Part shown: positions 1 to 30,336 of the stretch, one piece after another
How the letters are laid out: the number at the start of each line of letters is the position of its first letter
Position numbering within the stretch: the first letter of the stretch is position 1
From: Chloroflexota bacterium
Lineage (GTDB): Bacteria > Chloroflexota > Anaerolineae > UBA1429
DNA length: 64,000 nt
Assembly (NCBI GenBank): GCA_012841405.1
Contig: DUUT01000054.1
Span: forward strand, 6,220-70,219
Direction of reading: 5' to 3'
Translations under genes and position numbers: made by a program
Notes under the pieces: generated by a model
What the model was told of the DNA's origin: nothing
Database searches by the model: none
What the model saw: only the letters and a program-made list of their open reading frames with translations

Positions 1-1344
1 CACCAGGATGGCCAACCCGGCGTACTTGCCGATGGTCACGTAGAGGCGCTCGCGGGCCGCCTGCTCCATGGCCTCCGCCTCGGCCTCGTAGTAGCTGCGA
101 TCGAACGGCATCCCCTTGACGCTGACCACATCGCCGCGCTCTGCATCAAAGCCAACGGCCGCAGAGACGGCCTCCTGAATATCGCTGAGGTGCTGGGCAT
201 CGGTGATCCCGTCGATGAGGACCGACACGGCCAACCGTTCGACACGCCCCGGTGCGTTGCTCGAGTGCGTCTCGACGCGCGACACTTCATAGTTGCGCAG
301 CGATTCTTCCCGGGCATAGTCACCCGTCTCTTCCAGCGAGGCCTCAGACGCGGGCATCGGCGAATCCGGAGCCGGTGGCAGGTTGGTGTCGGCCCCGGGA
401 ATGCCGCCCACGCCCGACTCGGTGCCCTTGTACCGCTCGACGATGTCTTGCGAGCTGCGCAGCACCCCTTCCCCCGTACCGGGAGCATAGGTCTCGCTGA
501 CGCTCTCAACGCGGTTCCAGTCCATGGTGACCTGCGCCTGTACGACGGCGCGTCCGGGGCCCACGAGCTGCTCCAGCATCGACTGGACCTTGGCCTCGAG
601 GGTGCGCTCGTAGGCGCGCTGGATCTCGAGCTGCTGGGAGCTGATCTCGAGTGCCTGCTCGAGGGTGACGTCTTCGGCGCCGGATGCCAGCGTGTTCCCC
701 TGGGTATCGACAATGGCCAGGTTGTCGGGGTCCAGTCCCTCCACGCTGCCCGCCACGAGGTAGCGGATGGCGCGGATCTGTGCCTTGGTGAGGCTCGCGC
801 CGGGGGCGAGGCGGATCATGATGGAGGCCGTCGGATCGACCCGCTGGGACGCGTAGAGTGACTGCTGGGGGATGACGAGGTGCACGCGGACCTGATCCAC
901 CGCATCGAGGCTGGCGATGGTGCGCGCCAGCTCGCCCTCGAGGGCGCGGCGATAGTTCACCTCCTGGTAGAACTCGCTCATGCCCAGGTTGCTGGCGTCG
1001 AACAGCTCAAAGCCGATGGCGCCCCCCTTGGGGAGACCCTCGGCGGCCATGGCCAGGCGCACCTCTGCCAGAGCGTTGCGCGGCACAAGGATCGAGCCGT
1101 CATCGCCCAGGCGGTAGGGATAGCCCTTCTCCTTGAGACTGGCGACGACCTCTGCGGCGTCGTCAGCGTCCAGCCCCTTGAAGGCGACCGCATAGTCCGG
1201 CGTGCGCGCCCAGGTGGCAAAGACCACCATCATGATGACGGCCAGCGTGGTGAGCCCCGCCAGCGCGATGCGCTGCACCCGGCTCAAGCGCGTCCACAGC
1301 GACGCAAGATTGGTTCCCATATGTCCCATGAATGACGGCATCAT
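1..1344 (-). CDS. fliF: Flagellar M-ring protein FliF, N-terminal ~440 aa (partial, continues past the left edge)
   Basis: Open-ended minus-strand frame, absent from the ORF track because it runs off the window. My translation from ATG 1320 reads MGTNLASLWTRLSRVQRIALAGL...PDYAVAFKGLDADDAAEVVASLKEKGYPYRLGDDGSILVPRNALAEVRLAMAAEGLPKGG..FELFD..YQEVNYRRALEGELARTI, the conserved FliF/YscJ-type N-terminus, and stays open to position 1. In-frame ATGs also lie at 1329, 1341 and 1344, so the start is uncertain. It follows fliE as in canonical flgC-fliE-fliF operons. Confidence 0.9.
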   Translation of the reverse strand, partial: MMPSFMGHMGTNLASLWTRLSRVQRIALAGLTTLAVIMMVVFATWARTPDYAVAFKGLDADDAAEVVASLKEKGYPYRLGDDGSILVPRNALAEVRLAMAAEGLPKGGAIGFELFDASNLGMSEFYQEVNYRRALEGELARTIASLDAVDQVRVHLVIPQQSLYASQRVDPTASIMIRLAPGASLTKAQIRAIRYLVAGSVEGLDPDNLAIVDTQGNTLASGAEDVTLEQALEISSQQLEIQRAYERTLEAKVQSMLEQLVGPGRAVVQAQVTMDWNRVESVSETYAPGTGEGVLRSSQDIVERYKGTESGVGGIPGADTNLPPAPDSPMPASEASLEETGDYAREESLRNYEVSRVETHSSNAPGRVERLAVSVLIDGITDAQHLSDIQEAVSAAVGFDAERGDVVSVKGMPFDRSYYEAEAEAMEQAARERLYVTIGKYAGLAILV

Positions 1345-1391
1345 CTTCCCCGGGGTGTGCGAGACGTGGAATCAGCGATCAAGCGCCCACG

Positions 1392-1706
1392 CTACACCTG
1401 CATGCGCATGACCTCTTGGTATGCCTGCACGAGCTTGTTGCGCAGCTGAAGCGCTACCCGAAACGTCAGATCCGTCTTTTCCGCCGAGAGCATCACCTGG
1501 TGGAGATCGACCTGCTGCCCAGCGATCAGCTTCTCGATGGCGCGGTCCGATTCGGCTTGCGTCTCCATGAGGTAGTCGAGGGCGTCGCCAAAGCTCGTGC
1601 CCGCCGCGGCGGCGTGGGGCGTGGCGGCCAGCGTTGCCGTCTCGCGGCTGGCGAGGGTTTGGCGGATCGTCTGGAGTGCCTGTGTGGCGGAAGTCTCGGG
1701 AATCAT
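1392..1706 (-). CDS. fliE: Flagellar hook-basal body complex protein FliE
   Basis: 104 aa. The C-terminal ...LIAGQQVDLHQVMLSAEKTDLTFRVALQLRNKLVQAYQEVMRMQV matches the FliE signature. Sits between flgC and fliF. Confidence 0.9.
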   Translation of the reverse strand: MIPETSATQALQTIRQTLASRETATLAATPHAAAAGTSFGDALDYLMETQAESDRAIEKLIAGQQVDLHQVMLSAEKTDLTFRVALQLRNKLVQAYQEVMRMQV

Positions 1707-1742
1707 GGCGTCCTCTTACATGGTAGCCGGGGTGCAGCCGGA

Positions 1743-1880
1743 CTAGGTAGTGTATGGGAAAAGGGCCACAGCGTCGTTCTGAGCGTGGCGAGAACCCTTG
1801 TCGATGGGCGTCAAGGCCCCTCGCGTACGCTCGGGGCGACATCGTTACGACGTCGGGTGCATTTTCGAATCACGGCCTAG
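1743..1880 (+). mobile_element. MITE-like palindromic repeat, copy A (138 bp, CTAG...CTAG), in the fliE-flgC intergenic space
   Basis: About 85-90% identical by eye to 39721-39858 and 43901-44038. Imperfect terminal inverted repeats: GGTAGTGT(A/T)TGG..AAAAGG at the left end, against CGTTTTTGAAACACGGCC at the right end in copies B and C (GCATTTTCGAATCACGGCC in this copy). Bounded by CTAG at both ends. The right-hand CTAG (1877-1880) supplies the TAG stop codon of flgC on the minus strand. Confidence 0.75.
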
Positions 1881-2335
1881 CGGCCGATCTCGAGTGCCTT
1901 CATGGCCAGCTGTTTGATGCTATCGATGACCGTCACATTGGCCTGGTAGGAGCGTGTCGCCGAGATCATGTCGGTCATCTCGGTGACCACGTCGACGTTC
2001 GGGTACTCGACGTACCCCTCGGCATCGGCGTCGGGATGCTCCGGCTCGTACACCCGCGCGCCGGGCGCGTCGTCGATCAGGATGCGCGTCGCCTCGACGC
2101 CAGCGATGCCGTCATCGGGGCCGAGCGACCTGGCGGCCGTGAACGACGGTGGAAGGGCGAGCTGGAAGGGCTTTTCCTTCGGTTCGACGACGATGCGCCG
2201 GCGCTGGTAGGCCCCACCGTCGGCGGTTCGCGTCGTGTTGACGTTGGCAATGTTGTTGGCGATCACGTTCAGGCGCAGGCGCTGCGTGCTGAGCGCTGAT
2301 CCCGCTGTTCTGAGGACTCGGAACACGTCGTGCAT
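1877..2335 (-). CDS. flgC: Flagellar basal-body rod protein FlgC
   Basis: 152 aa. N-terminal ...ALSTQRLRLNVIANNIANVNTTRT and C-terminal YPNVDVVTEMTDMISATRSYQANVTVIDSIKQLAMKALEIGR are canonical FlgC motifs. Confidence 0.95.
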   Translation of the reverse strand: MHDVFRVLRTAGSALSTQRLRLNVIANNIANVNTTRTADGGAYQRRRIVVEPKEKPFQLALPPSFTAARSLGPDDGIAGVEATRILIDDAPGARVYEPEHPDADAEGYVEYPNVDVVTEMTDMISATRSYQANVTVIDSIKQLAMKALEIGR

Positions 2336-2341
2336 GGTCGT

Positions 2342-3739
2342 CTACCTCATTGCAGTTGCCAGGCGTTTGAGGGCGTCCACCACGGGGCTGACCCAGCCGT
2401 TGCGCTGAAAGAGGGCCTGCCACTCAAAGGCATCGTCATGGCCGCCGCCCGCCTGGTTGGCGAGAATCCAGTAGGTATAGGCGAACGTGTAGGGCTCTGC
2501 CTGGGTCGCCATGTAGCGATAGGCGCCCGATATGAGGTCGACCTGCTTGGCTTCGTCGACCTGCTCGTTCACATAGGTGCCCGCTTCGGTGCCCACAATG
2601 GGGATGATGCGCCCCAACTCGCGCTGCAGGATGTCGGCGTACTGCCGGAAGCGCAGGAACCCGTCGGGGTTGTCCAGCGGCAGGTTCCCGGCATAGTTGT
2701 GCATGCTCAGCCAGCCACGATCGAGCAGCCATTCTTCGCCGCGCTCCTTGAGTCCCCGCAACGCCTGCGTGAGGAAACTGCGGTCGTCCACCTCGCCCTG
2801 CGGGCTGAGCGCCCCGAACCCGGGCAGCCCGCCAGCGGCCACGACGCGCTTGGCGGCGGCGATCCAGACGTCGAGGTAGCGGTTCACGTCCGGGTCGGCA
2901 CCGTCGTTCTCCAGACGGAGATTCGGCTCGTTGTACAGCTGGAAGTAGGAGACGCCGAGCTGCTTGTAGTGGCGTACCAGCGCCTCGAGGTCGCCCATGA
3001 TCGGCGCGAGCCCGGGCGTATAGACGCGCATGACCGGCATGATGCCGCTCTGTACGAGCTTGGACACGAGATAGTCATTGGCGCCGATCTGCGTACCCTC
3101 GTTGAGGATGACCATCCACTTGATGCCCATCTCTTGGGCCTCGCGCACAAAGCGATCGACGACCTCGGGAGTGCTGGACACCGTCGGAATCCAGTGCATT
3201 CCCCAGCCATTGTCAGCGACGGGCCGAGGGTACTCCTCCAGCGCCATCGGCTTACGGCCGGCGATGGGCCCGACGTTGCTCCTGCCCTTGACGGCGCCCA
3301 CCTGCGTCGCGCGCGTGGCGTCGATAGGCGCTGGCGCACTGGCCCCTGTCGAGCCGGTAAGTTGCGCCGGGAGGGGAGTGTCGGGAGGCGGCATGGCTGG
3401 CCTCCCATTGGGCATCACCGGGTCCTCGGGGGCTCTGTCAATGGTCCGTGGTGGAACCCGTACGCGCCCGGCCTGGCGGTACACCTTGGGTACGGCGGCG
3501 GTCCTCAGGTAACGGGTCTGCTGCCACGTCCGCGCTCGCGCGGGAGCCTGCGGTTGAGGCTGTGGCTGAGGGGCACTCTCCGCCGGCTGGGATTCGGCGC
3601 GTTTCCCGTCGAGGAGCAGAGCGAAGGACTGCCCGTTGGGCTGCCCATTTGGCGCGACGGGATGCGGCAGGCGCCCCTCAGTGAGAGAAGCCGGGGACTC
3701 TGCCCGTACCATCGTAATGTCACGCATAGCGTCCGTCAT
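2342..3739 (-). CDS. Clan GH-A (beta/alpha)8 glycoside-hydrolase-like protein with ~165-aa Pro/Gln/Ala-rich disordered N-terminus; first gene of the flgC-fliE-fliF operon
   Basis: 465 aa. The C-terminal 300 aa show the 4/7-superfamily pattern: GMHWIP, IKWMVILNEG, MPVMRVY, YFQLYNEPN (Asn270-Glu271-Pro272 acid/base motif), WLSMHNY, IPIVGTEAG (Glu385, putative nucleophile), YTYWIL. No signal peptide or TM segment. The stop lies 6 nt before the flgC start. Confidence 0.6.
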   Translation of the reverse strand: MTDAMRDITMVRAESPASLTEGRLPHPVAPNGQPNGQSFALLLDGKRAESQPAESAPQPQPQPQAPARARTWQQTRYLRTAAVPKVYRQAGRVRVPPRTIDRAPEDPVMPNGRPAMPPPDTPLPAQLTGSTGASAPAPIDATRATQVGAVKGRSNVGPIAGRKPMALEEYPRPVADNGWGMHWIPTVSSTPEVVDRFVREAQEMGIKWMVILNEGTQIGANDYLVSKLVQSGIMPVMRVYTPGLAPIMGDLEALVRHYKQLGVSYFQLYNEPNLRLENDGADPDVNRYLDVWIAAAKRVVAAGGLPGFGALSPQGEVDDRSFLTQALRGLKERGEEWLLDRGWLSMHNYAGNLPLDNPDGFLRFRQYADILQRELGRIIPIVGTEAGTYVNEQVDEAKQVDLISGAYRYMATQAEPYTFAYTYWILANQAGGGHDDAFEWQALFQRNGWVSPVVDALKRLATAMR

Positions 3740-3876
3740 GCCAGGACCTCACCAGACTGGGGCGTGTGGCGCACTCCACACGCTCGCGAGCCGCTATCGG
3801 TGCCGCGATCAGCGCCGGTCGCAACACCACCAATGGCGCCGTCGCGCCTCGGCAGGGGGCGCCACGTCGCAAGGCC

Positions 3877-3910
3877 ACTATAGCAAAGGGGGGCGGGCAA
3901 AGTCAGTAAA
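3877..3910 (-). promoter_or_regulatory. Putative housekeeping-sigma promoter of the GH-flgC-fliE-fliF operon (TTTACTGACT-N18-TATAGT)
   Basis: The minus strand reads CAACTTTACTGACTTTGCCCGCCCCCCTTTGCTATAGTGG. The -35-like CTGACT and -10 TATAGT are 18 nt apart, in the only AT-rich patch upstream of 3739. It shares the TTTACTGAC core with the flbD promoter at 23589. Confidence 0.45.
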
Positions 3911-3998
3911 GTTGTCGTGAAGTAGCTGTGAAAAGAATGTGAATGCGAGGGATGTAGAAAAAGACAAAAGAGGATATTGAGGGTAAAAGCAGCGAGGC

Positions 3999-4078
3999 GA
4001 GGAGGTGGTCTTCTCGGAGGAGGTCTCTTCTCGAGGGAGCCTTCCTTTCGGAGGCCTCCTCTAGGAGGCCTCCTCCAG
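3999..4078. repeat. Degenerate tandem repeat, five units of 14-18 nt rich in GGAGG (plus strand) / CCTCC (minus strand), spanning the sortase stop codon
   Basis: Units: GAGGAGGTGGTCTTCTCG / GAGGAGGTCTCTTCTCG / AGGGAGCCTTCCTTTCG / GAGGCCTCCTCTAG / GAGGCCTCCTCCAG. The last two contain the self-complementary 10-mer GGAGGCCTCC twice (4050-4059 and 4064-4073) flanking the sortase TAG. Confidence 0.6.
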
Positions 4079-4885
4079 AGGGGCGGGGGCAGCGATGACG
4101 ATGAGCCGGTGCGAGTTATCGCGATAGGGCCAGCAGGTGACCAGTGTGAGGCGTTCATCGATGGTGGGGGCAATCCAGAGGGCATTCTGCGCCCTCTGCT
4201 CCTCCGAAACGTGCTTCTCTGGCACGATAAAGCGCTCGCGCACGAGGTAGCGATAGGTCGTCTCTCCCGCGGCGAGGTACACCTCATCCCCCGGCGCCAC
4301 ATCCACCAGGTAGCGAAAGACCTCACCGCGGATGTTGTGGTGCCCCGCGAGCACGACGTTGGTCCCCTCACCGGGCAGGGCGGATCGCTCCAGCCACCCC
4401 ACGGCGGTGCCGGGATCCTCCCAGAGCACGCTCCCGTCCGCTTCCTCGCGCCAGCCCATCGGTACGACGGTTGCGCGGAGGCCGATGGCCGGGATAGCGA
4501 GCTCGGAGGGGGGCGCCTCGGCCAGCGGGATGGCGGGGGGCGGGGGCGCAATCGTCGGTGAGGGCGTCGCCGTCGGTCTAGGAAGGGGGGTGGCGGTCGT
4601 AAGGTAGGCTAGGGGCCGCGGCGGGAGTTGCTGCGGCGGAACGCCTGGCGGAGGGGCTGCCGTGGCGTCGTGCGCCGGCTGGAGCGCCGGTGTCGTGGGG
4701 CGGTCCTCGACGGCAGCACCCGCCGACGGGAGGTGCTCGGCGGTGGGTATCACCACGGTGATACGATTACAGGCCGTGCACTGGAGCAGGCAGACGGTGG
4801 CCGCCAGGAGCGCCAGACCTCGGCGCGCCCCAGACGGCCACCAGAGATGGGTGTGGGTAGCCATGGGCCGGTCAGAGCGATTCAC
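4061..4885 (-). CDS. Sortase-family transpeptidase (membrane-anchored, Pro-rich linker)
   Basis: 274 aa. N-terminal hydrophobic anchor GLALLAATVCLLQCTAC, then a Pro/Thr/Ala linker. The catalytic domain has NVVLAGHHN (His), the TLVTCWP (TLxTC) Cys motif and a downstream Arg (HRLIVIA). GTG start with GCGAGGT RBS, 36 nt after flaG. Confidence 0.85.
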   Translation of the reverse strand: MNRSDRPMATHTHLWWPSGARRGLALLAATVCLLQCTACNRITVVIPTAEHLPSAGAAVEDRPTTPALQPAHDATAAPPPGVPPQQLPPRPLAYLTTATPLPRPTATPSPTIAPPPPAIPLAEAPPSELAIPAIGLRATVVPMGWREEADGSVLWEDPGTAVGWLERSALPGEGTNVVLAGHHNIRGEVFRYLVDVAPGDEVYLAAGETTYRYLVRERFIVPEKHVSEEQRAQNALWIAPTIDERLTLVTCWPYRDNSHRLIVIAAPAPLEEAS

Positions 4886-4921
4886 GCGAAACCTCGCATG
4901 TGTGCAAATCGATGTGGGCCT

Positions 4922-5305
4922 CTAGAGCCGCGTCTCGATGAGGGAGCCGACCTGCGCATTCCCCTCGTAGAGTAGCTTGAGGATCTCCTCCGGCGGGATC
5001 GTGCGGATGACTTGGCCGGACCGACGATCAATGATGCGCACGCTGACCTGCTTGGTGGTGCGATCAATGACAAACTGGACGTACGCATCGCGAAAGGGGC
5101 CGTTGGGCGGCTCGCGCTCTGCCTCGCCGTCGGGCGTGGCGCCCTCGTCCGAATGCCGCACACGCGCCGGTGGTACCCAGTCCTGTCCGGGCGTGGTGAG
5201 TGGATCAACCGAGTTACTCCCCATGAACCGTGCCCACTCGGCGAGGCGCACGGTGAGCCGGTCGATGGGGGGTAGGTTCTCGATCGCGGAGATCGAGTGT
5301 GGCAT
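4922..5305 (-). CDS. flaG: Flagellar protein FlaG
   Basis: 127 aa. The C-terminal VQFVIDRTTKQVSVRIIDRRSGQVIRTIPPEEILKLL matches the FlaG family signature. GAGGAG RBS. Located next to fliD. Confidence 0.8.
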   Translation of the reverse strand: MPHSISAIENLPPIDRLTVRLAEWARFMGSNSVDPLTTPGQDWVPPARVRHSDEGATPDGEAEREPPNGPFRDAYVQFVIDRTTKQVSVRIIDRRSGQVIRTIPPEEILKLLYEGNAQVGSLIETRL

Positions 5306-5364
5306 GTCGTGTACTCCTCTATGCCACGGCTGGGCTCACGGAAGGTCCGAGCCCCATGCCGTGC

Positions 5365-7518
5365 CTAGCCATAGGTACCTCCCCAGTACATGCGCATTTG
5401 CTGCTGGCTGTAGGTCATCTGGGTGAGTTGAACCAAGAGATGGCTGTACTGCTTTTCGAGGACGGCACGCTGGCTCTCGATGCGCTCTTGGATCTGGGAG
5501 ACGCGGTCATTTACGCCGCGGAGCTGCTCGTTCGTTACCGCTATCTTGCGATTGATCATCCCATCGGCGCCTGTGTAGGGGGAGAGGCGCTTCTCCATGT
5601 TGTCCAGCACGGCGTTCAGGAGCGCCTCAACGCCCGACGGATCGGCAGCCAGGGCAGCATCCAGCGCGTTCGCATCGAGCACCGGTACCAGGTTGGCGTC
5701 CAACGTGATCCCGATCTGACGGAGACTGGTGGGCGCTCCTGCAGGCAGGCCGCTGATGGTCTCGGAGAGCGTCATGTAGAGCGATGTGCGCAGGGCGGTG
5801 AACAGCGTGTTATCGCCCGCGAGGGCATTGCGCGTGTAGGTGGCATTGGCACCCGAACCCGAGGCGGTCACCCCCGTCTCGTTCTTGATCAGCGACTGAA
5901 AGGCGGTAAAGGCATCCAAGAGCGTGCTGATCTTGTCGGCGATGGAGCCGGTGTCGCGCTCCACCGTCAGGATGGCGCTCTGCCCTTCAGCATCGGCGGC
6001 CAGGTTGATCGTCATGCCCGTCACGACGTCGGACAGGCCGGTGTTGCGGTCGCGGGTGACGGTGATGCCGTTCACCGTAAAGACCGCATCGGTCGCGTCC
6101 TGGTAGCCGCTACCAGGGCCTGTATTCTTGAACGTGTTGGGTGCCGAGATGAGGCCAATGCCGTTGGCGCCCGTGCCGCTGAGCACCGTGCCTTGCACAT
6201 CGGCGAGCTGGATGGTATGCGCCGCGCCGGTGGACTTGGCCGTCAGCACCAGGCGATTGGTGACGATACTGGCACTGACGCCCGCACCGTCGGGATAGCT
6301 CGCCGTGTTGATGGCGTTGGCAATGTCGATCAGGCTGTCGCCCGAGGAGACGGTGATCAGTGCGCCGCCGCTGGTGTACGAGACGCTGGCAGCGCCGGCC
6401 CCGATGGTGCCAACTTGGGTCAGGCGCGCGGTATAGTCGACCTGCGCCGCCCCGGCTCCCATGGTGCCCTCCACGTAGGGGCCCTCGCCGAAATCGATGC
6501 TGATGCCTCGCCCGGTGACAAAGACACCATTGGCGTCGTTGGCCAAGACAGCATCGATGGCCTGCCAACCAGCGGTAAAGCTGCCATCAGCCGCCGCGGC
6601 GTCATAGATCGACACCGCCGTGCCCGTCGCGTCAACGAGCCGGAACTGCCACTCGCCGCTCCCGGCGCCGTTCTCGCGGGTCTCGACATAGTAGCGGCCG
6701 CTGGCGAGCTCGGCCTGGCCAGAGCGCACCGCGCTGGTGGTGATGGCCTCCACCGTATCCGGCATCGTGACCACGTCGGCCACCGCGTGGTCCGACAGGG
6801 GGGCAAAGGTGATCGTGAGGCCTCGCCCCGTATCGAACGTCGTGCCGGCCACGGTGCTCAAGTCCTGCCAGTCCGACGTCATGGCGGTGCCCGCGTCGCC
6901 GGCAACGTCCACCGAGACGGCGACGCCGTGCTCGTCGACGATCCGGAACTGGAGGGTGTTGTGATGGTCGCGGATCTCGACGTGGTAGCTCCCGTGACTG
7001 AGCTCGGTCTGCCCGGAGCGCACGGCCGCGGTGCCAAAGGCGCTTACCGTGTTCAGCACAGGGGACGCGTCGCTGACGGCACGCGCGCCCGTTCCGCCGA
7101 TGACAAAGGTGCCCTCGAGGCCCAGTGCTGCGGTGGCGGATACCTGCGCGTCCGAGGCGGCACGCTGTGCCCGCGCCAAGCTCGTGACCGAGATGGTGTA
7201 GGCCCCTGCAACGGCGCTGCGGGTGGCGCTGGCCGTCACGATGGTGCCACCCGCCACACTGTGGCCGCCCACCGACACCTTGTTGGCAGTCCACACCGAA
7301 CCGGCGCTGCTGCGCAGGTCGGCGATAGCCGAGGTCAGATCGGTGAGCTTGCTGTTTAGCCTCGTGTACGCCTGCACGAGCGCGTTCAGCGTGGTGCGCT
7401 GGCTGGCGAGCTGGTCCAGGGGCTTGGACTGAGTCGTCAGCGCGGCATCAATGATCTGACGGAAGAACTGCCGATAGGTTTCGTTCACCCCAGCGATCGT
7501 GTTTGCGGTAAGTGCCAT
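5365..7518 (-). CDS. fliD: Flagellar filament cap protein FliD (enlarged, with internal tandem domain duplication)
   Basis: 717 aa. N-terminal ...SKPLDQLASQRTTLNALVQAYTRLNSKLTDLTSAIADLRS and C-terminal ...NEQLRGVNDRVSQIQERIESQRAVLEKQYSHLLVQLTQMTYSQQQM coiled-coil ends are typical of FliD. Confidence 0.9.
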   Translation of the reverse strand: MALTANTIAGVNETYRQFFRQIIDAALTTQSKPLDQLASQRTTLNALVQAYTRLNSKLTDLTSAIADLRSSAGSVWTANKVSVGGHSVAGGTIVTASATRSAVAGAYTISVTSLARAQRAASDAQVSATAALGLEGTFVIGGTGARAVSDASPVLNTVSAFGTAAVRSGQTELSHGSYHVEIRDHHNTLQFRIVDEHGVAVSVDVAGDAGTAMTSDWQDLSTVAGTTFDTGRGLTITFAPLSDHAVADVVTMPDTVEAITTSAVRSGQAELASGRYYVETRENGAGSGEWQFRLVDATGTAVSIYDAAAADGSFTAGWQAIDAVLANDANGVFVTGRGISIDFGEGPYVEGTMGAGAAQVDYTARLTQVGTIGAGAASVSYTSGGALITVSSGDSLIDIANAINTASYPDGAGVSASIVTNRLVLTAKSTGAAHTIQLADVQGTVLSGTGANGIGLISAPNTFKNTGPGSGYQDATDAVFTVNGITVTRDRNTGLSDVVTGMTINLAADAEGQSAILTVERDTGSIADKISTLLDAFTAFQSLIKNETGVTASGSGANATYTRNALAGDNTLFTALRTSLYMTLSETISGLPAGAPTSLRQIGITLDANLVPVLDANALDAALAADPSGVEALLNAVLDNMEKRLSPYTGADGMINRKIAVTNEQLRGVNDRVSQIQERIESQRAVLEKQYSHLLVQLTQMTYSQQQMRMYWGGTYG

Positions 7519-9159: not shown

Positions 9160-10863
9160 CTATGTCGAGATGGTCGGCTGCTCGACAAACCGTTGGAGGG
9201 CGGCGACGTTCTCTCGGACGAGGGCATCGTGCGGCGCTGCGGCTAACACACAGCGATACCCCTCCAGGGCGGCCGCATACTGCTGCAGGTGTGCATAGCA
9301 GGTCGCCAGGTCTGCGAGGGCATCCATGTCCGTAGGGTTGCCGTGCAGATACTCCTCGAGGTGGGCGATGGCGTCATCGAACGCGCCGCGCCCGGCGCAG
9401 GATCTCGCCGCGAGGAGGGCGGGCGCCCCTGGGGACGCGTCACCGGCTTCTCCCAGCACCTTCCAGCGGAACGCCGGGGCATCGGCGTGTGGCGCCTTTG
9501 GGTGTTCCCCGGCCTCGGGTGCGGCGGCCAGCGACGCGTCCACCGCTTCCGCTGCGGGCGCCTGCGCGGGCGCGCAGCGACGCGCCTGGGCATCGGCCTC
9601 CTCAGCCTCGACGAGCCGGTCCTGGGACCGGTAGAGGTCTGCCAAGTACTGCCATACCCTGCGGTTCGCCGCCCCACAGGCGATGGCCCTCTGGAGCACC
9701 GTCTCGGCCGGTACGAGCGATCCGGCGCGGCCGTAGCACATGGCCAGGTTCGCATAAGCGTCCCCATCCTGGGGAGAGTGCTCAATGGCGCGTTGGAAGG
9801 CGTCGATCGCCTTGTCTCGCTGGCCGAGGCGGTCGTAGCAGCCGCCCAAGTGATTCCACGCCATCCCCTCCGAGCTATAGTGGTCATACACCAGCTCGGT
9901 GGGCTTGGGGTTCCGTGTCTCCTCGCGCTTGAGTATCAAGAAGCGTTTGAACTGGCTGATGGCGGCTTCGGTCTTGTCCTCCTGCGCAAAGTACAGGAGG
10001 GCCAACTCGATATTCAGGTCGAGGCTCTCGGGGATGCGTTCAAGCTCTGCGAGGAGCACCTCTTCGCCCTGGGCGTAGCGTCCCAGGGCACGGCAGCTGA
10101 TGGCCACGTCGCAGGCTACGCCATGGCGGTGCAGGCGCTGCGTGTTGGGGCGGCCGAGCACCCACAGGCCCCGCTCGATGACCTCCTCGTGGCGCTCCGT
10201 GTTGCGGTACACGCGTATGAGGTTCATCCAGGCAAAGGTGTTCTCCGGGTCCTCGGCGAGCTGTTGTTGGAGCAGCTCTCCGGTGCGCTTCCACTTGCGC
10301 TCCAGATCCTCCCGGGAGAGGTTGTAGCCATAGTGCCACAGGCGCACCTCGGTGACGAGATGTTTGCCCTCGTAGACGAGTTGGTTGTGGACGATGCCCT
10401 CAAAGTGCGCCTTGCCCCGGCGAAAAAGCCGCGGAAAGTAGTGTTTGGCCAGCCGCCCGCCGGGGAGCGTGCTGAGCAGCGGCACGCCGAGGGCATGGAC
10501 GTCGGGCGAGGCATGAGCCCGGCGCACCGTCTCGAGGAGCAACTCCTGATCCTCATGCTCCAGCTCTTCATCGGCGTCGATCTGCAGGATCCAATCGCCG
10601 GTGGCGTAACGCAGCGAGTGGTTGCGCGCCTCGCTGAACGAGTTGTTCCAGGCGTGAAAGAACACCCGATCGGTGTAGCGACGGGCGATGTCAACGGTGG
10701 CATCCGTCGAGCCCGTATCGACGATGATGATCTCGTCGGCCACGTCCTGGACACTCTCGAGGCACTGCGCCAAAAAGCGCTCCTCGTTCTTGACGATCAT
10801 GCAGACAGACAGGCGTGGGGCGGGATCCTGGGGCGCGTTCGCTACGGGATTGACCATGTTCAC
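9160..10863 (-). CDS. Family-2 (GT-A) glycosyltransferase fused to C-terminal TPR repeats; candidate flagellin glycosyltransferase
   Basis: 567 aa. N-terminal LSVCMIVKNEERFLAQCLESVQDVADEIIIVDTGSTDATVDIA...ILQIDADEEL (GT2 DxD-type motifs). The C-terminal half has repeated TPR-like A..Y..LG....A...Y..A periodicity. Adjacent to the fliC promoter. Its start overlaps the wecB stop. Confidence 0.8.
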   Translation of the reverse strand: MNMVNPVANAPQDPAPRLSVCMIVKNEERFLAQCLESVQDVADEIIIVDTGSTDATVDIARRYTDRVFFHAWNNSFSEARNHSLRYATGDWILQIDADEELEHEDQELLLETVRRAHASPDVHALGVPLLSTLPGGRLAKHYFPRLFRRGKAHFEGIVHNQLVYEGKHLVTEVRLWHYGYNLSREDLERKWKRTGELLQQQLAEDPENTFAWMNLIRVYRNTERHEEVIERGLWVLGRPNTQRLHRHGVACDVAISCRALGRYAQGEEVLLAELERIPESLDLNIELALLYFAQEDKTEAAISQFKRFLILKREETRNPKPTELVYDHYSSEGMAWNHLGGCYDRLGQRDKAIDAFQRAIEHSPQDGDAYANLAMCYGRAGSLVPAETVLQRAIACGAANRRVWQYLADLYRSQDRLVEAEEADAQARRCAPAQAPAAEAVDASLAAAPEAGEHPKAPHADAPAFRWKVLGEAGDASPGAPALLAARSCAGRGAFDDAIAHLEEYLHGNPTDMDALADLATCYAHLQQYAAALEGYRCVLAAAPHDALVRENVAALQRFVEQPTIST

Positions 10864-12053
10864 CTCACAGGGTTCAGACGCCTCTCGAACGGTGCGGCCA
10901 AGGGAGTGGTGGAGAGCCCAAAGCGGCTGGCGATGGCCTGGGCGATGCGCTCGCCAGCGTGACCATCACCGAACGGGTTGGGCGCAGAGGCCATGCGTCG
11001 GTAGCTCTCCGCGTCGGTAAGCAGGCGCTCGGCCTCGCGGACGATGCGCTCTGCGTCGGTGCCGACGAGCAGCGCTGCTCCCGCTTGGACGGCTTCGGGG
11101 CGTTCAGTGGTATCGCGCAATACGAGCACGGGCACATTCAAGGAGGGGGCTTCCTCCTGGATGCCGCCGGAATCCGTCAGGATCAGGTGCGACCGCCGCA
11201 TCGTGTGGGCAAAGGCGACATAATCGAGCGGCTCGACGAGGCGGATGTTGTCCCGCCCCGACAGCAGGCCAAAGACGGTCTCGCGTACGCGCGGATTGAG
11301 GTGCACGGGGAGGAGAAAGGTATCCTCCGGGTGTGCGTCGGCCAGACGAGACACCGCGTCGCAGATGCGGTGGAGGGGGGTGCCCAAGCTCTCACGGCGG
11401 TGCGTCGTGACGAGGATGAGCCGACCCGAGAGCCCCTGCAGCGGGGCATCAACGGGTGCCCAGGGGCGACTGACCACGTCGAGGAGGGCGTCGATCACCG
11501 TGTTCCCCGTCACGGTGATGCCGTCGGGTGCCACCCCCTCGCGCAGGAGGTTCTGGCGAGCGGCCTCGGTGGGTGCAAAGTGCATCGCGGCGATCGCGCC
11601 GGTGAGGCGACGGTTCATCTCTTCGGGGAACGGGTTGAGCGGATCGCCGGTTCGCAGCCCTGCCTCGACGTGGCCAACGGGCACGCGCCGGTAAAAGGCC
11701 GCCAGGGAGCCCGCGAATGCTGTGGTGGTATCGCCCTGCACGAGGACGACGTCCGGCTTTTCCGCCTCGATGACCTGCGACACACCCTCGAGCACCCGCG
11801 CCGTGAGGAGCTCCAGGCTCTGGCGCGGCTGCATGACGTCGAGGTCGTATTGCGGGACGATGTCAAACGTCGCGAGTACCTGATCGAGCATCTGCCGGTG
11901 CTGGGCGCTCACGCACACGGTGGTGGTCAACTGGGGCAGCGCGCGCAACGCGCGGATCACCGGTGCCAACTTGACGGCTTCGGGGCGCGTGCCCAAGACG
12001 ACGAGGACGCGCGCGCCAGCGGGCCGATGTCTGCAATCCGTTGACGGTGCCAT
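10860..12053 (-). CDS. wecB: UDP-N-acetylglucosamine 2-epimerase (non-hydrolysing)
   Basis: VLVVLGTRPEAVKLAPVI...VCVSAQHRQMLDQVL..F.I.P.YDLDVMQP.QSL..LTARVLEGV...KPDVVLVQGDTTT...AAFY..VPVGHVEAGLRT...PFPEE.NR are classic WecB/MnaA motifs. I trimmed the 475-aa ORF to the ATG at 12053 (MAPSTDC...), because the upstream part is low complexity and overlaps the preceding gene. Confidence 0.9.
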   Translation of the reverse strand: MAPSTDCRHRPAGARVLVVLGTRPEAVKLAPVIRALRALPQLTTTVCVSAQHRQMLDQVLATFDIVPQYDLDVMQPRQSLELLTARVLEGVSQVIEAEKPDVVLVQGDTTTAFAGSLAAFYRRVPVGHVEAGLRTGDPLNPFPEEMNRRLTGAIAAMHFAPTEAARQNLLREGVAPDGITVTGNTVIDALLDVVSRPWAPVDAPLQGLSGRLILVTTHRRESLGTPLHRICDAVSRLADAHPEDTFLLPVHLNPRVRETVFGLLSGRDNIRLVEPLDYVAFAHTMRRSHLILTDSGGIQEEAPSLNVPVLVLRDTTERPEAVQAGAALLVGTDAERIVREAERLLTDAESYRRMASAPNPFGDGHAGERIAQAIASRFGLSTTPLAAPFERRLNPVR

Positions 12054-12081
12054 AGGTCTCTTCACGCAGCCTTTCTCCGCC

Positions 12082-14751
12082 TCATGAGCCGTCAACCAAC
12101 ACTGTAGCGGCAACGACACCCGCCGGCTCGCTGATGGCGCCCATGGGAGCACCGGGCGTGCCATCGCCGGCCAGGTACGCGCTTCCAGGACTGGCGGGTA
12201 GCGCAGGGGCTCCAGGGAGGCTCGCCGCCAACGCCAGGAGCTCTTGCAGTCGGTGTCGATAGGTGTGCCCCTGCAGGATGGCGGCATGCCCGCGTCGGGC
12301 GATCGCCTCCCGCTCGGCGTCGTGGGCGAGGTAGTAGGCTACGGCCTCGTGCAGAGCAGCGATGTCGCCAGTTGGAACGCTGACATAGTGCTCACCCTCT
12401 CGCAGCAGGTGGGGCGATGACAGCGCCTCGGTGATCAAGAAAGCGCCGGCGCCGAGCACCTCGGCGATGCGCGTCTCGGTATTGGGCAGATCGGAGAGGT
12501 GCAGATTGAGAACGATCTTGGACTCGTTGTAGAGCGCGTTGAGGGCGCGAGGGTTCCAGACGTTTGCCCGGTGCAATCGACAGCGCTGCGCGAGGGCATC
12601 GAGGATCTGCGCGCGGCGTGGCGTAACCGTGCCGACAAAGGTGACGTCGTAGCGCTTGGGGAGATCGAGCACGCCATGCACCGCGGGGTCGACGGCGGCC
12701 GTTGACAGCCACGCGACGCGCTGGGCGCCCAGGCGACGATAGACCTCGAGGTTGCCCTCATCATGGGATAGGACCAAATCAAAGGCGCCGATGTTGAACG
12801 CCAGCTCGTGGCGTCGCTCCATGGCGGCCGCATCGGCGGCGTCAGGAGTCCCGAGCTGCTCGGCATACCACAAGACAGTCGGGCAGGGGGCTGCACGGAT
12901 GATGCGCGGGTCGATCCCCTCGCCGCGACACACTAGCACGAGGCTGGCCGGCTGTTGGATGCGCTCGGCCAGATCATGCCGGTGCTGGCGATAGTCGGTG
13001 CTGATCACCCTGTAACCGAGCGCCTCTAGTGGAGCGATGAGGCGATTCTCAAAACCCCATGGGTAGTTGGCCTCCTGGGCGCCCACGAGGTGCACGGTGG
13101 GCTGCGGAGGAGAGTCTGACGCGACGACCGTGGCCGTGGGACGATCTCGGCGCGACACGGCGGGCGGTGCATCTTGGATCACCCGGTGGAGCACCCGACC
13201 GAGCTGCCGACGCAGCGTATCGATGGACAGCTGCTCCTCCGCAAAGCGCCGCGCGTTGGCCCCCATGGCGGCGATTCGATCCGGGGCGCTCGCGAGGGCG
13301 CGCATCTTGTCGGCGAGATCGTGCGTGCTGACGATCGTCTCGGGGAAGGCAATGTTGTCCGCGCGGGTAACGGTGCGCTCCACGTCCACCAGGAGGCCGT
13401 TGTAGCCCTCGATCACGAACTCGTTCATCGGTGGGGCGTTCGTGGCGATGGCGGGCAGGCCGCAGGCGAGGCCCTCGGGCAGTGGAAGCCCCAGGCCCTC
13501 GAGCTTGGACGGGAACACGAGGATGCGACCGCGGTGATACAGCCCGGGCGCCGGCTCGGTGCCCACGTGGTAGGTGATGCGGGGGTGGCGAGCGACGATG
13601 GCGGCGCTCTCGGGAGGCAGCTTGTCCGTGCCTACCTGCGCGTGCACGAGAAGCGTCACCTCGGGCAGGTCTTTGGAGACCATATCAAAGGCGGTGATGA
13701 CGGCGGGCGTCATCTTGCGGTAGCCGATGCCCAGCCAGCCCGCGTTGTGGAAAAAGGTGTGCGTCGCGGCGCGCGGGTCGGCAGGGGCAAAGAGTGCGGT
13801 GTCCACCGCCCAGCCGATGTAAAACGCCTGGCAGTGGGAACGGACGAGATTGTAGGTGCGCAGGGTGGAGCAGAGCACCCCGTCATAGAGGCGCATAAGG
13901 GGCGTCCACTCGTCCCTGTAATAGTCGAGATAGGTGAGGACACGCACTCCTGTGGACTTGGCCGCCACCACGAGGTTCCAGTCATACTCCTCGTTAAAGA
14001 CGACGGCGTCGAGGCGGTTCTCGTGGATCCAGCGCACGAGGACATCGCACGGAATCTCATAGTCGGGAAAGGTGTGGAGGTTGGGCACGTGCCAAAAGCC
14101 GGCGGTTTCGAGCATCGAACGGCCATAGACGCCGCCGGTACGGGCAAAGACAAAGGTCTCGTGGTCCTGCGCCAGGGCGTCGCGCAGCATCTTGGTGACG
14201 TATGCCTGGCCGCGTTCGAACCAGATGGAGACGAACCCGACACGGAGGCGCCGGGTATGGCGCGTGGCGTGCGCTTCGGCGCGCGGCACGACGGCATCGA
14301 GACGCTCTCTGGCGCGGGCGTTGGCCGGTTCACGCCGGAGACAGACTCGGTACGCCAGCTCGGCTTCGATCGCCTCATCGAGGCTGTCCAACGTCCTGGC
14401 CAACCCGTACCACGCCTGGGAATAGTCCACGTCGAGTGCCACGGCGCGGCGGTAGCACTCCTCCGCCTGGGTATAGTGCCCCTGTGCATAGTGGAGCACA
14501 CCGAGATTGTTCCAGATGCTGGCATCGTCCGGCACGAGGGCGGCGGTGCGCTCAAAAGAGGCGATGGCCTCGGGCACCTCCCCGCGCGCGTGGTGCAGGA
14601 GGCCCAACTCGTAATGCGGGCCAGGCTGGTCGGGGTAAGTACTGGCGGCGTGGCGGTAGGCGGCGATCGCCTCGGAGTGGCGTCCCTCAGCCGCCAGTGC
14701 GGCGGCGTGGGCCATCATCCCGTCGTACGCGATTCGAGTGCTATCGGCCAT
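12082..14751 (-). CDS. Three-module protein: N-terminal TPR repeats, central GT-B (GT4-like) glycosyltransferase, C-terminal CgeB/DUF3880-like glycosyltransferase-type domain
   Basis: 889 aa. TPR region: AIAAYRHAASTYPDQPGPHYELGLLHHARGEVPEAIASFERTAAL.P.D...WNNLGVLHYAQG. GT4-type core: RILVFPSKLEGLGLPLPEGLACGLPAIATNAPPMNEFVIEGYNGLLV. The C-terminal ...YDVTFVGT..PRRAQILDAL......H.ANVWN...LNALYNESKIVLNLH.........R.AEVLGAGAFLITE resembles CgeB-family proteins. Confidence 0.7.
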   Translation of the reverse strand: MADSTRIAYDGMMAHAAALAAEGRHSEAIAAYRHAASTYPDQPGPHYELGLLHHARGEVPEAIASFERTAALVPDDASIWNNLGVLHYAQGHYTQAEECYRRAVALDVDYSQAWYGLARTLDSLDEAIEAELAYRVCLRREPANARARERLDAVVPRAEAHATRHTRRLRVGFVSIWFERGQAYVTKMLRDALAQDHETFVFARTGGVYGRSMLETAGFWHVPNLHTFPDYEIPCDVLVRWIHENRLDAVVFNEEYDWNLVVAAKSTGVRVLTYLDYYRDEWTPLMRLYDGVLCSTLRTYNLVRSHCQAFYIGWAVDTALFAPADPRAATHTFFHNAGWLGIGYRKMTPAVITAFDMVSKDLPEVTLLVHAQVGTDKLPPESAAIVARHPRITYHVGTEPAPGLYHRGRILVFPSKLEGLGLPLPEGLACGLPAIATNAPPMNEFVIEGYNGLLVDVERTVTRADNIAFPETIVSTHDLADKMRALASAPDRIAAMGANARRFAEEQLSIDTLRRQLGRVLHRVIQDAPPAVSRRDRPTATVVASDSPPQPTVHLVGAQEANYPWGFENRLIAPLEALGYRVISTDYRQHRHDLAERIQQPASLVLVCRGEGIDPRIIRAAPCPTVLWYAEQLGTPDAADAAAMERRHELAFNIGAFDLVLSHDEGNLEVYRRLGAQRVAWLSTAAVDPAVHGVLDLPKRYDVTFVGTVTPRRAQILDALAQRCRLHRANVWNPRALNALYNESKIVLNLHLSDLPNTETRIAEVLGAGAFLITEALSSPHLLREGEHYVSVPTGDIAALHEAVAYYLAHDAEREAIARRGHAAILQGHTYRHRLQELLALAASLPGAPALPASPGSAYLAGDGTPGAPMGAISEPAGVVAATVLVDGS

Positions 14752-28079: not shown

Positions 28080-28466
28080 ATGATGGACGGCGTCGAGCTG
28101 CAGGTCCTGGTCAAACTTGGCGTGGTGCTGCTGCTCATCTTTCCCACGCTGTGGGTGTTGCGGCGCCTGATGGGCGGACCCGCCGGCGGCTGGCGCCAGT
28201 CGATCCACGTGCTCGAGAGCCGACCCCTGGCGGACGGGCAGCGCCTGTACCTCGTGCGCATTCATGATCGCCATCTGTTGCTGGGCGGCAGCAAGCAGGC
28301 AGTGAGCCTGCTGACCGAGATCGAGGCGCCCCCAGAACCCGAGGCGATGGCAGCCGAGGGGCCCATGGGGTGGGACGAGGCCGTGCGATCCCTGCGTACC
28401 GTGTATAGGCGGTGCCTTGCATCGTTGGGTGCCCGGCTCCATGCCGGCCGACCTGAGGCGCTGTGA
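28080..28466 (+). CDS. fliO: Flagellar export apparatus protein FliO/FliZ-like
   Basis: 128 aa. One TM (LVKLGVVLLLIFPTLWVL), then IHVLESRPLADGQRLYLVRIHDRHLLLGGSKQAVSLLTEI, the FliO pattern. Sits between fliN and fliP. Confidence 0.65.
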   Translation: MMDGVELQVLVKLGVVLLLIFPTLWVLRRLMGGPAGGWRQSIHVLESRPLADGQRLYLVRIHDRHLLLGGSKQAVSLLTEIEAPPEPEAMAAEGPMGWDEAVRSLRTVYRRCLASLGARLHAGRPEAL

Positions 28467-28473
28467 GCCGATC

Positions 28474-29259
28474 ATGAGGCCATTCCCTTCCTCGGCATCG
28501 CGGCGCGCGTTGGGGCGCTTGGTACGCGTGGGGCTCTTACTCGGGCTGGCCGCGCTGCTGTCGGGCTGCGCCACCGATCAGACGGTGAACCTCTCCGCCG
28601 ACCTTGTGCCGGTGGGGGCGAGCGAGCCGGTGACGGTGAGCACGCCGCTCCAGCTGGCGTTGCTCCTCACCGCGGTGACGCTGTTGCCGGCCATTCTCAC
28701 CCTGGTCACCGCGTTTACCCGGATCGTGATTGTGCTCTCCTTCGTGCGCAACGCCGTGGGCACACCGCAGACGCCGCCGACGCAGGTGGTCATTGGGCTG
28801 AGCCTCATCCTGACCTTCTTTGTCATGGCGCCGACGTGGAGCACGGTGAACGCCGAGGCGGTGCAGCCCTACCTGGAGGGGCAGATCGGCCACCGGGAGG
28901 CGTACGAGCGCGGGATCGTGCCGGTGCGGGCGTTCATGTTCGAGCAGACCCGCGAGAAGGACCTGTCGCTCTTTGTGCGTCTGGCCAAGATAGAGCAGCC
29001 CGACACGCCGGACGACATCCCAACCCACGTGCTGGTGCCGGCGTTCGTGATCAGTGAGCTCAAGACCGCCTTTCAGATGGGATTCATGATCTTTGTGCCC
29101 TTCCTGGTGATCGACCTACTCATCTCGAGCACGCTGATGTCCATGGGCATGATGATGCTGCCGCCTTCGCTCATCGCAACGCCCTTCAAGATCCTGTTGT
29201 TCGTCATGGTCGATGGCTGGCACCTGATCATCAAGTCGCTCATCGAGAGCTTTGGCTAG
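28474..29259 (+). CDS. fliP: Flagellar type III export gate protein FliP
   Basis: LLTAVTLLPAILTLVTAFTRIVIVLSFVRNAVGTPQTPPTQVVIGLSLILTFFVMAP...PAFVISELKTAFQMGFMIFVPFLVIDLLISSTLMSMGMMMLPP. I chose the start at ATG 28474, just after the fliO stop. The signal peptide ends in LLSGC. Confidence 0.95.
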   Translation: MRPFPSSASRRALGRLVRVGLLLGLAALLSGCATDQTVNLSADLVPVGASEPVTVSTPLQLALLLTAVTLLPAILTLVTAFTRIVIVLSFVRNAVGTPQTPPTQVVIGLSLILTFFVMAPTWSTVNAEAVQPYLEGQIGHREAYERGIVPVRAFMFEQTREKDLSLFVRLAKIEQPDTPDDIPTHVLVPAFVISELKTAFQMGFMIFVPFLVIDLLISSTLMSMGMMMLPPSLIATPFKILLFVMVDGWHLIIKSLIESFG

Positions 29260-29565: not shown

Positions 29566-30336
29566 GTGACCTTTACCATCGCCCAGGCGGAGCACGTGCT
29601 GCTCGTGACGGTGCGCGTACTAGCCATCACCATGGTGGCGCCGGTGTTCAGCACGTCGCGCTACCCGGCGCCGGCCAAGATCGGCTTGGCGCTGGTTGTC
29701 GCCGGCATCATCGTACCCACCCTGCCTCCCATCGAAGAGACGTGGGGCCTGTTCCCGCTGGCGTTCCTGGTGGGGCAAGAGTTCCTGGTGGGACTCATCA
29801 TCGGGTTCTGCAGCCTGATCGCCTTTGTGGGCGTGCAGATGGCGGCCACGTACATCGGCTTACAGGCCGGGTTTCGCATGGCCGACATGCTGAACCCCAA
29901 CATGCCCGACCTGGTACAGCAACAGGGCTCGTCCCTGGAACAGGTCTACACGGTGCTGGTGGTGCTGGTGTTCCTGGCGGTGGATGGCCACCACTGGATC
30001 ATCATGGGCATTCAGCGCAGCTTTGACCTGGCACCGGTAGGGCCGCTCGCCCTCGATGGACTGGCGGGCGAGCGGCTGGTGACGCTGGCGAGCACGCTCT
30101 TTACCATCGCGCTATCGATTGCCATGCCCATCATGGGCACGCTCCTGCTGCTAGACGTCGCCCTGGCCATCATTGCGCGCGCAGTGCCCCAGGTGCAGGT
30201 GTTCTTTGTCGGTGCGCCGGTCAAGATGGCCTTGGGATTGGTAACGCTCATCCTCTCGCTCCCGTGGATGGCGAGCTATATGGTTGATCGCCTGGGGCGA
30301 GTGATTGACGACATGCTGATCGTGCTGGTTGCGTAG
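29566..30336 (+). CDS. fliR: Flagellar type III export gate protein FliR
   Basis: 256 aa polytopic membrane protein between fliQ and flhB. RVLAITMVAPVFS......P...K..LAL and later FliR-like segments. Confidence 0.9.
   Translation: MTFTIAQAEHVLLVTVRVLAITMVAPVFSTSRYPAPAKIGLALVVAGIIVPTLPPIEETWGLFPLAFLVGQEFLVGLIIGFCSLIAFVGVQMAATYIGLQAGFRMADMLNPNMPDLVQQQGSSLEQVYTVLVVLVFLAVDGHHWIIMGIQRSFDLAPVGPLALDGLAGERLVTLASTLFTIALSIAMPIMGTLLLLDVALAIIARAVPQVQVFFVGAPVKMALGLVTLILSLPWMASYMVDRLGRVIDDMLIVLVA

Follow-up and report, generated by a model that had tools for sequence, protein, structure and literature searches.

X, a predicted clan GH-A glycoside hydrolase encoded at the head of the flgC-fliE-fliF operon of Chloroflexota

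Introduction

In Salmonella and other beta- and gamma-proteobacteria, FlgJ combines the rod cap with a GH73 beta-N-acetylglucosaminidase and leaves the cell through the flagellar type III system. In Borrelia, Rhodobacter and Caulobacter, two separate proteins take the place of FlgJ (PMC8517470), and the rod cap and hydrolase represented by FlgJ are absent from Bacillus (PMC10746217). How flagella cross the thick or multilayered walls of monoderm bacteria is poorly understood, and only one cultivated genus of the Chloroflexota is known to swim (PMC10284905). The locus considered here lies in a 64,000-nucleotide stretch of contig DUUT01000054.1 (hereafter the window) from a Chloroflexota bacterium of the class Anaerolineae (assembly GCA_012841405.1), and the element in question is the gene of a 465-residue protein, named X, at positions 2342-3739 of the minus strand. 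This gene heads the flgC operon and encodes an N-terminal region, putatively for export or targeting, followed by a predicted clan GH-A catalytic barrel, which makes X a concrete candidate for envelope penetration at the rod stage. An earlier note, made from the letters of the window, had proposed that X occupies the place of a missing flgB and may be a wall-remodelling enzyme that leaves the cell through the flagellar type III system.

X as First Gene of the flgC Operon

The open reading frame of X comprises 465 codons and runs from an ATG at position 3739 to position 2342, such that its stop codon lies 6 nt from the start of flgC, as the earlier note had described. Downstream on the same strand follow flgC, encoding a proximal rod protein (1877-2335, minus strand; TIGR01395, 159 bits; Pfam Flg_bb_rod and Flg_bbr_C), fliE (1392-1706, minus strand; Pfam FliE, 1.8e-22; TIGR00205) and the 5' part of fliF (1-1341, minus strand), of which 447 of 609 codons are present before the gene is cut by the window edge. 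The fliF part was identified by a 100% tblastn match to residues 1-447 of FliF from the public record of the same contig (L001), which carries the Pfam domain YscJ_FliF.

The public (JGI) call of X (P0001) is 350 aa long and begins at M116, so that the region encoded at 3395-3739 (minus strand), and with it the N-terminal motif discussed below, is lost. The long N-terminus is kept in the homologs P0002-P0006, which share 65-75% identity with X over 99-100% of the query, and the ATG at 3739 is preceded by the ribosome-binding site GGTGAGG. The conservation among homologs and the good ribosome-binding site favour the 465-residue form over a start at M116.

Conservation of this arrangement was assessed in a sample of one genome per GTDB species, which yielded 80 loci, almost all from metagenome-assembled genomes (MAGs) of Chloroflexota (Anaerolineae, Caldilineaceae, Ardenticatenales and others), with one record binned as Zixibacteriota. 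This is the synteny comparison for which the earlier note had called, and it places X directly 5' of flgC-fliE-fliF-fliG-(fliH)-fliI-fliJ-SLT-flgB in 46 of the 80 loci, with a glycoside hydrolase in front of flgC and flgB behind fliJ and SLT. In these 46 loci, flgC starts a median of 8 nt after the stop codon of X; the distance is at most 30 nt in 34 of them, and in some cases the two genes overlap by 4 or 7 nt. Since the identity of X in flagellar loci falls to as low as 46%, the arrangement appears to be old and maintained. In one locus (L039) the contig stops right after X, with fliC-fliD-flaG-fliS located upstream of X. X is therefore the conserved first gene of the flgC-fliE-fliF operon in Anaerolineae-type Chloroflexota.

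The SLT-flgB Pair Beyond the Window Edge

The earlier note had found no flgB-like reading frame in the window, and this was borne out by a six-frame search of the window for rod motifs, which recovered flgC, flgG and flgK only, as well as by tblastn of the organism's own FlgB against the window, which recovered rod paralogs only. Together these searches rule out a flgB hidden in or near the X gene. The apparent lack of flgB is, however, an artefact of the window edge. Over 13,394 nt, L001 and the window share 99.94% identity, with window position 1 corresponding to L001 position 13394, and past the window its gene string continues through fliF-fliG-fliH-fliI-fliJ to SLT, flgB, fliK and flgD. 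FlgB (134 aa; TIGR01396, 97 bits against a cutoff of 59; no Pfam annotation in the source) is thus encoded in the same gene string as X, 4.8 kb beyond the window. The idea that X stands in for a missing FlgB has to be given up. What stands of the "flgB slot" is the position, since X sits where Firmicutes and spirochaetes have flgB; judging from the gene order, flgB itself has moved from the operon head to a site after fliJ.

Immediately upstream of flgB lies the gene of a 177-residue SLT lytic transglycosylase (L001 17624-18157; Pfam SLT, 2.4e-28). The best NCBIfam match of this protein is the Borrelia flagellar enzyme BB0259, which is sub-threshold (6.8e-25, 87.9 bits against a cutoff of 234). 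The SLT-flgB pair (L001 17624-18575) lies 4.2-5.2 kb beyond the left window edge and is kept in nearly all related flagellar loci. By its domain content, the SLT protein is a peptidoglycan-lytic candidate already present in the operon, so that X is not the sole candidate for wall lysis. The SLT protein has no obvious signal peptide and carries the sequence F50DQLI. Further along, fliK is called with 209 aa, and its frame is open for 568 aa (L001 18599-20305, plus strand); the minus-strand gene of 275 aa called in the same interval is probably spurious.

Fold, Active Site and Family Membership

An alignment of 71 homologs served as the input for AlphaFold2. In the resulting model the catalytic domain (residues ~166-465; 2345-3244, minus strand) is predicted with a local distance difference test score (pLDDT) >90 and forms eight beta/alpha units. 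E271 (nucleotides 2927-2929), within an NEP motif placed just after the beta4 strand (residues 265-268), is the predicted acid/base, and E385 (nucleotides 2585-2587), within the beta7 strand (residues 381-387), is the predicted nucleophile. Invariant in the 71 homologs are N270, E271, P272, H347, N348, Y349, E385, G387 and W424, and T384 is at least 90% conserved, while A386 is neither. The NEP, HNY, TEAG and W motifs named in the earlier note were accordingly all located (N270-E271-P272, H347-N348-Y349, T384-E385-A386-G387 and W424), and its assignment of X to the (beta/alpha)8 hydrolases of the 4/7 superfamily agrees with the structure prediction, the Foldseek comparison and the invariance of E271 and E385. 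On this model X is predicted to be a catalytically intact retaining glycoside hydrolase.

When the model was compared with the PDB by Foldseek, 328 fold matches were obtained at E <= 0.001. PslG was on top (5bx9, 4zn2 and 9g17; E ~1e-10, 18% identity), followed by GH39 xylosidases, GH5 mannanases and cellulases, GH2, GH128 and GH164 (top E 1e-10 to 1e-6), such that the top families all belong to clan GH-A. PslG, GH39 and GH5, with which the earlier note had suggested a structural comparison, are therefore among the best folds, and in the viral structure library BFVD the top matches are phage GH5-like proteins. PslG and GH39 enzymes carry a beta-sandwich domain packed on the barrel; the model of X consists of the barrel only, with a last helix at residues 452-464 and without a beta-sandwich accessory domain. 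By predicted fold and catalytic geometry, X is very probably a clan GH-A enzyme.

Its membership in a described family is another matter. X itself matched nothing in Pfam or NCBIfam, none of the 71 members matched Glyco_hydro_39 in Pfam at E <= 0.1, and GH5 (Pfam Cellulase) was found only sub-threshold, in 3 of the 71 members at E ~0.03 and not in X. A profile search of the PDB sequences likewise returned nothing relevant to X. The 487 homologs of X are each unnamed or annotated as "hypothetical", and none has a Pfam domain. As far as profiles can tell, X stands outside GH39, GH5 and every other profiled family, and its relatives would constitute a family of uncharacterised glycoside hydrolases, so far mainly in Chloroflexota, that may be new to CAZy.

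Wider Relatives and the Likely Substrate

An exhaustive profile search retrieved 965 representative clusters at E <= 1e-3, 210 of them at E <= 1e-30, and the N-termini of these wider relatives are mostly of the Sec or transmembrane type. A Pfam scan of 62 long relatives revealed a peptidoglycan-hydrolase domain on the same chain in 16 cases, namely Amidase_2 (five relatives), SpoIID (five), NlpC/P60 (three), SLT_3 (two) and Peptidase_M23 (one), and beta-sandwich repeats of the kind common in surface proteins are present in many further relatives. In P0156, P0184 and P0198 the chain starts directly with the X domain, without a signal peptide, and also contains Amidase_2. P0125 (L087 215-2152) joins an N-terminus of the flagellar type (…DFQRSLLAAL…) to the X domain and a C-terminal NlpC/P60 domain, and its gene is followed by that of a methyl-accepting chemotaxis protein. 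Because of the peptidoglycan-hydrolase fusions, the X family is placed among the cell-wall hydrolases, and X itself probably acts on the cell envelope.

A phage origin as an endolysin family was considered and rejected, since IMG/VR contained no relatives of X with the patterns used, the X domain matched no PHROG family, and one of the amidase-fused relatives lies in a Chloroflexota genome in an ordinary chromosomal context.

Which glycan would be cut is suggested by several observations that point in two directions. A glycan other than peptidoglycan is favoured by the co-occurrence with SLT, by the fusions to domains that cleave the glycan strand and by the nearest folds, which act on exopolysaccharides and hemicelluloses, while peptidoglycan is favoured by the placement of the X domain in the usual position of the glycosidase module in modular wall hydrolases. 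Chloroflexota envelopes would offer such an enzyme a target: Tepidiforma has 20-30 nm of peptidoglycan and an S-layer (PMC10284905), and Litorilinea has extra inner and outer layers of unidentified composition, possibly polysaccharide, which leave free the poles from which appendages emerge (PMC13319060).

The N-Terminus and the Candidate Export Motif

Residues 1-165 (3245-3739, minus strand) are predicted to be disordered, with pLDDT <50 save for two short helices (residues 39-48 and 71-79), and are rich in proline, alanine and arginine (P 16%, A 15%, R 10%, Q 7%). This region lacks any hydrophobic segment (maximal 19-residue Kyte-Doolittle value of 0.32), and the composition and the hydrophobicity scan agree with the earlier note, which had seen neither a signal peptide nor a transmembrane segment there.

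The consensus of the gate-recognition motif of early flagellar export substrates was reportedly given as F-x-x-x-hydrophobic by Evans et al. in 2013. In X the sequence F39-A-L-L-L43 (3611-3625, minus strand) is, by conservation and position, a candidate for such a motif. The N-termini of the flagellar-linked homologs likewise lack a hydrophobic segment and are long, of low complexity and hardly alignable except for the pattern [S/G/D]-F-[A/E/S/D]-x-x-[L/I/V/M]. F39 and L43 are each at least 90% conserved in the 71 homologs, and phenylalanine occupies the aligned column in 68 of the 71, the three exceptions being truncated gene calls. The phenylalanine is mostly found at positions 28-58, and the motif occurs at positions 25-60 in 68 of the 71 N-termini, compared with ~11 of 71 expected when each N-terminus is shuffled. 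At the level of pattern, X thus has the unstructured F-x-x-x-hydrophobic sequence near residue 40 that characterises early export substrates. Rod and hook subunits are unchaperoned and bind the cytoplasmic domain of FlhB through a short, hydrophobic motif for gate recognition, found at residues 36-40 of Salmonella FlgD (PMC8983047). Sequences of the same form are present in FliE (F39GDAL), FlgD (F37MQLL), FlgB (F46DATL) and the long reading frame of FliK (F39TAML) of the same organism, next to F39ALLL of X. The extreme N-terminus of X, MTDAMRDITMV, has hydrophobic positions at A4, M5, I8, M10 and V11, and the start codons of the homologs are uncertain. The window also contains the gene for the part of the export gate to whose cytoplasmic domain the motif would bind, namely flhB (30349-31443, plus strand; Pfam Bac_export_2, 1.9e-120), with fliP (28417-29259), fliR (29566-30336) and flhA (31480-33573) as its neighbours (Pfam FliP, Bac_export_1 and FHIPEP, respectively).

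A second type of N-terminus is found in ~31 homologs, most of them from Ardenticatenales and Promineifilaceae, around which no flagellar gene lies within 10 kb. These proteins begin with a lipobox signal peptide (e.g. MKRSRLLFGLSLVVWSLLVGC), followed by a linker with 30-43% Pro+Thr. In a neighbour-joining tree of the catalytic domains, the flagellar type and the lipoprotein type form two separate clades. Because the sister clade consists of lipoproteins, the catalytic domain would be expected to act outside the membrane, and therefore the flagellar clade would have to exit the cell without Sec. On these grounds we infer, with good motivation, that X is exported via the flagellar type III system. 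The loci without flagellar genes were also considered as a source of functional partners, but the neighbours of the lipoprotein genes (thioredoxin-like proteins, reductases and regulators, housekeeping-like by N-terminal sequence alone) gave no hint at the substrate.

Proposed Role of X and Alternative Explanations

In non-flagellar contexts, the enzyme would be a lipoprotein exported by Sec on a Pro/Thr-rich tether. In flagellated lineages of the Anaerolineae type, one clade may have lost the lipoprotein signal and gained a disordered N-terminus of 100-170 residues with F-x-x-x-hydrophobic near residue 40, and X would have come to lead, in close coupling, the flgC-fliE-fliF-fliG-fliH-fliI-fliJ-SLT-flgB operon. 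Its product would be synthesised alongside the MS ring, the export apparatus and the proximal rod. Docking on FlhB in the manner of a rod- or hook-type substrate, X would leave through the flagellar type III channel and cut an envelope glycan locally at the assembly site, opening the thick, multilayered wall for the passage of rod and hook. The target may be a polysaccharide layer associated with peptidoglycan or the peptidoglycan glycan strand, and X would work beside the SLT lytic transglycosylase encoded next to flgB. An envelope hydrolase exported without Sec is the most economical explanation, because it accounts for the lipoprotein sister clade, the peptidoglycan-hydrolase fusions and the N-terminal motif together. 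We give an even chance to X being an envelope glycan hydrolase that lacks a Sec signal and uses flagellar type III export, and a genuine flagellar role with this export route, considered as a claim of its own, seems about equally well balanced between true and false. The wall-remodelling enzyme proposed in the earlier note is upheld in so far as a non-orthologous glycosidase without a Sec signal is present in the flagellar operon (as indicated by synteny, sister clade and fusions), but not as the only lytic candidate, given the SLT gene beside flgB. The more specific proposal, that X is the founder of a new envelope hydrolase family with a GH-A fold and the first TIM-barrel enzyme known to be exported via the channel of the flagellum, digesting a non-peptidoglycan layer (or peptidoglycan by means of a new fold), is tentative and falls somewhat short of an even chance.

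Several points weigh against this explanation. The synteny, the invariant catalytic residues, the two N-terminal types, the domain fusions and, as a prediction, the fold are directly established; how X is exported, what it cuts and which part it plays in assembly are what we infer. The motif is only five residues long. Hidden Markov models (HMMs) built from 19 FlgD and 24 FliE motif windows of related loci scored the N-termini of X no higher than shuffled sequences, so that a profile likeness of the X motif to the FlgD and FliE regions was rejected, and for this reason the gate-recognition argument is one of pattern, position and conservation. The Rod_binding domain (PF10135) was found neither in the 71 full-length members (E <= 0.1) nor in seven isolated N-termini (E <= 10); an assignment of the N-terminus as a Rod_binding domain as in FlgJ had been entertained, since some homologs (FEAVLAQMLLKIL...) looked similar to that domain, and was dropped when Pfam found nothing. 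GH73 is likewise missing from X, which has no Pfam match to it and whose predicted fold is a TIM barrel, and no clan GH-A family is known to cleave peptidoglycan. A folded TIM barrel of 300 residues would have to be exported in an unfolded state, as is normal for type III substrates. SLT is present in essentially every locus, which makes X unnecessary for explaining the penetration of peptidoglycan, and a flagellar role of X, if any, is additional to that of SLT. Finally, two members of the flagellar-type clade, in L043 (2338-3270) and L044 (9941-10924), lack the lipoprotein signal, and their short flanks show no flagellar genes. L043 is from a Dehalococcoidia MAG, and its protein has a Gly-rich N-terminus.

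Among the alternatives, the one that survives best takes X for a hydrolase of envelope or matrix glycans whose gene is regulated jointly with motility and which has no part in flagellar assembly. It might, for instance, loosen a shared outer layer, a sheath or an exopolysaccharide and thereby release flagellated cells from a filament or biofilm, and X would take another route out of the cell. The best fold match, PslG, is an enzyme that trims an exopolysaccharide, and the lipoprotein sister clade without a flagellar link speaks for a housekeeping role in the envelope. In filamentous Chloroflexota, moreover, the cells have an outer layer in common, which is lacking at the appendage-bearing poles (PMC13319060). 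However, X has no Sec, Tat or transmembrane signal, such that another route would have to be invented, and the conserved N-terminal motif is left unexplained. In 46 genomes X also heads the earliest structural operon at a median distance of 8 nt from flgC, and so close a linkage argues for a role at the rod stage over one in general dispersal. We therefore consider this alternative unlikely.

Slightly more doubtful still is a new muramidase or glucosaminidase built on the GH-A barrel, which would be the functional counterpart of the GH73 domain of FlgJ, with SLT cutting the other bond type. X-like domains do fill the glycosidase slot next to Amidase_2, NlpC/P60 and M23 in modular wall hydrolases, and X resembles FlgJ in its layout, with an unstructured N-terminal part, a hydrolase at the C-terminal end and a gene in the rod operon. 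On the other hand, no characterised GH-A family is known to act on peptidoglycan, the closest folds are those of exopolysaccharide, xylan and mannan enzymes, and the relatives fused to the glycan-strand cutters SLT_3 and SpoIID suggest that the X domain adds a different specificity.

A cytoplasmic X, acting on a flagellin glycan, a lipid-linked precursor or a polymer derived from nucleotide sugars, with the N-terminus as a protein-interaction tail, would suit the missing signal peptide and the intracellular role reportedly ascribed to PslG in the title of a paper. It would also suit the genes upstream of fliC in this region whose products, glycosyltransferases and an epimerase, probably glycosylate flagellin. 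This alternative is nevertheless very improbable: export is evident for the sister clade and for most of the wider relatives, the domains found in fusions are peptidoglycan hydrolases that work outside the cell, and X sits with the rod genes whereas the glycosylation genes lie on the far side of fliC.

Other Features of the Flagellar Locus

On the 5' side of X and on the same strand, a 320-nt intergenic region is followed by a sortase gene, flaG, fliD, fliS and fliC. The intergenic region contains a candidate sigma-70-like promoter, CTGACT-18-TATAGT with a TG extension (3877-3906, minus strand), which is proposed from the consensus match only; it is the sole promoter-like site in 1300-5400, where 0.4 would be expected by chance.

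The sortase gene (4061-4885, minus strand; Pfam Sortase, 8e-26) is located between flaG and X inside the flagellar locus, and its product shows a weak, sub-threshold likeness to models of class E and class C sortases. About 12 of the related flagellar loci have a sortase gene in this place as well (L005-L007, L011, L030, L040, L048, L054, L074, L076 and L084). A sortase sorting signal, consisting of an LPVTG end, a hydrophobic stretch and a basic tail, is present in the reading frame at 34489-35706 (plus strand), which has no Pfam match and lies directly 3' of a gene of the sigma-70 family (FliA-like?; 34007-34873) and directly 5' of distal-rod genes (35652-36458 and 36486-37286). The true start of this frame is probably internal (MRSVRHELF...), with a signal peptide, and the product may be a wall-anchored flagellar accessory protein. 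Immediately upstream of fliC, two genes for TPR-containing glycosyltransferases and a UDP-GlcNAc 2-epimerase-like gene (9160-14751, minus strand) probably form a flagellin glycosylation island.

Comparison With Known Systems

Wall hydrolases dedicated to the flagellum are already known as a kind, with FlgJ as the example, and what would be new in X is that such an enzyme is built on an undescribed GH-A family. No paper describing the X family or a GH-A enzyme in a flagellar operon was found in a limited literature search. CAZy may also gain a new family of wall-active enzymes here, the X family would offer a natural experiment in the exchange of export signals, with a lipoprotein signal on one side and a putative flagellar type III signal on the other, and the substrate of X could be a way into the composition of the unidentified envelope layers of Chloroflexota.

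The lytic enzymes BB0259/LTaseBb of Borrelia, SltF of Rhodobacter and PleA of Caulobacter share with X the concept of a separate enzyme for the passage of the flagellum through the wall, but they are of the SLT/GH23 type, unlike X, and their role is here most plausibly filled by the SLT protein encoded beside flgB. Modular wall hydrolases and endolysin-like enzymes combine a glycosidase with an amidase and an endopeptidase, and the distant fusions of the X family resemble them in joining the X domain to Amidase_2, NlpC/P60, M23, SpoIID or SLT_3, whereas X itself has no second catalytic domain. PslG of Pseudomonas aeruginosa, a GH39-like endoglycosidase of the Psl exopolysaccharide (PDB 5bx9, 4zn2 and 9g17), has in common with X the clan GH-A barrel, in which, by strand position, the acid/base follows beta4 and the nucleophile lies in beta7, but differs in its sequence (18% identity), an extra beta-sandwich domain, another export signal and another genomic context.

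The closest functional analogue of X would be FlgJ. Like X, FlgJ is encoded with rod genes, lacks a Sec signal and consists of an unstructured N-terminus and a C-terminal glycoside hydrolase, and both are presumed to act at the rod stage and to let the rod cross the wall. Unlike X, FlgJ has the lysozyme-like GH73 fold instead of a (beta/alpha)8 GH-A barrel and contains a Rod_binding domain, which is not detectable in X; since both of its defining domains are absent, X is, by domain content, not a member of the FlgJ family. Further differences are that a separate SLT enzyme co-occurs with X and that the substrate of X may not be peptidoglycan. If the proposed role is true, X would represent a second, independent solution to the problem that FlgJ solves in proteobacteria.

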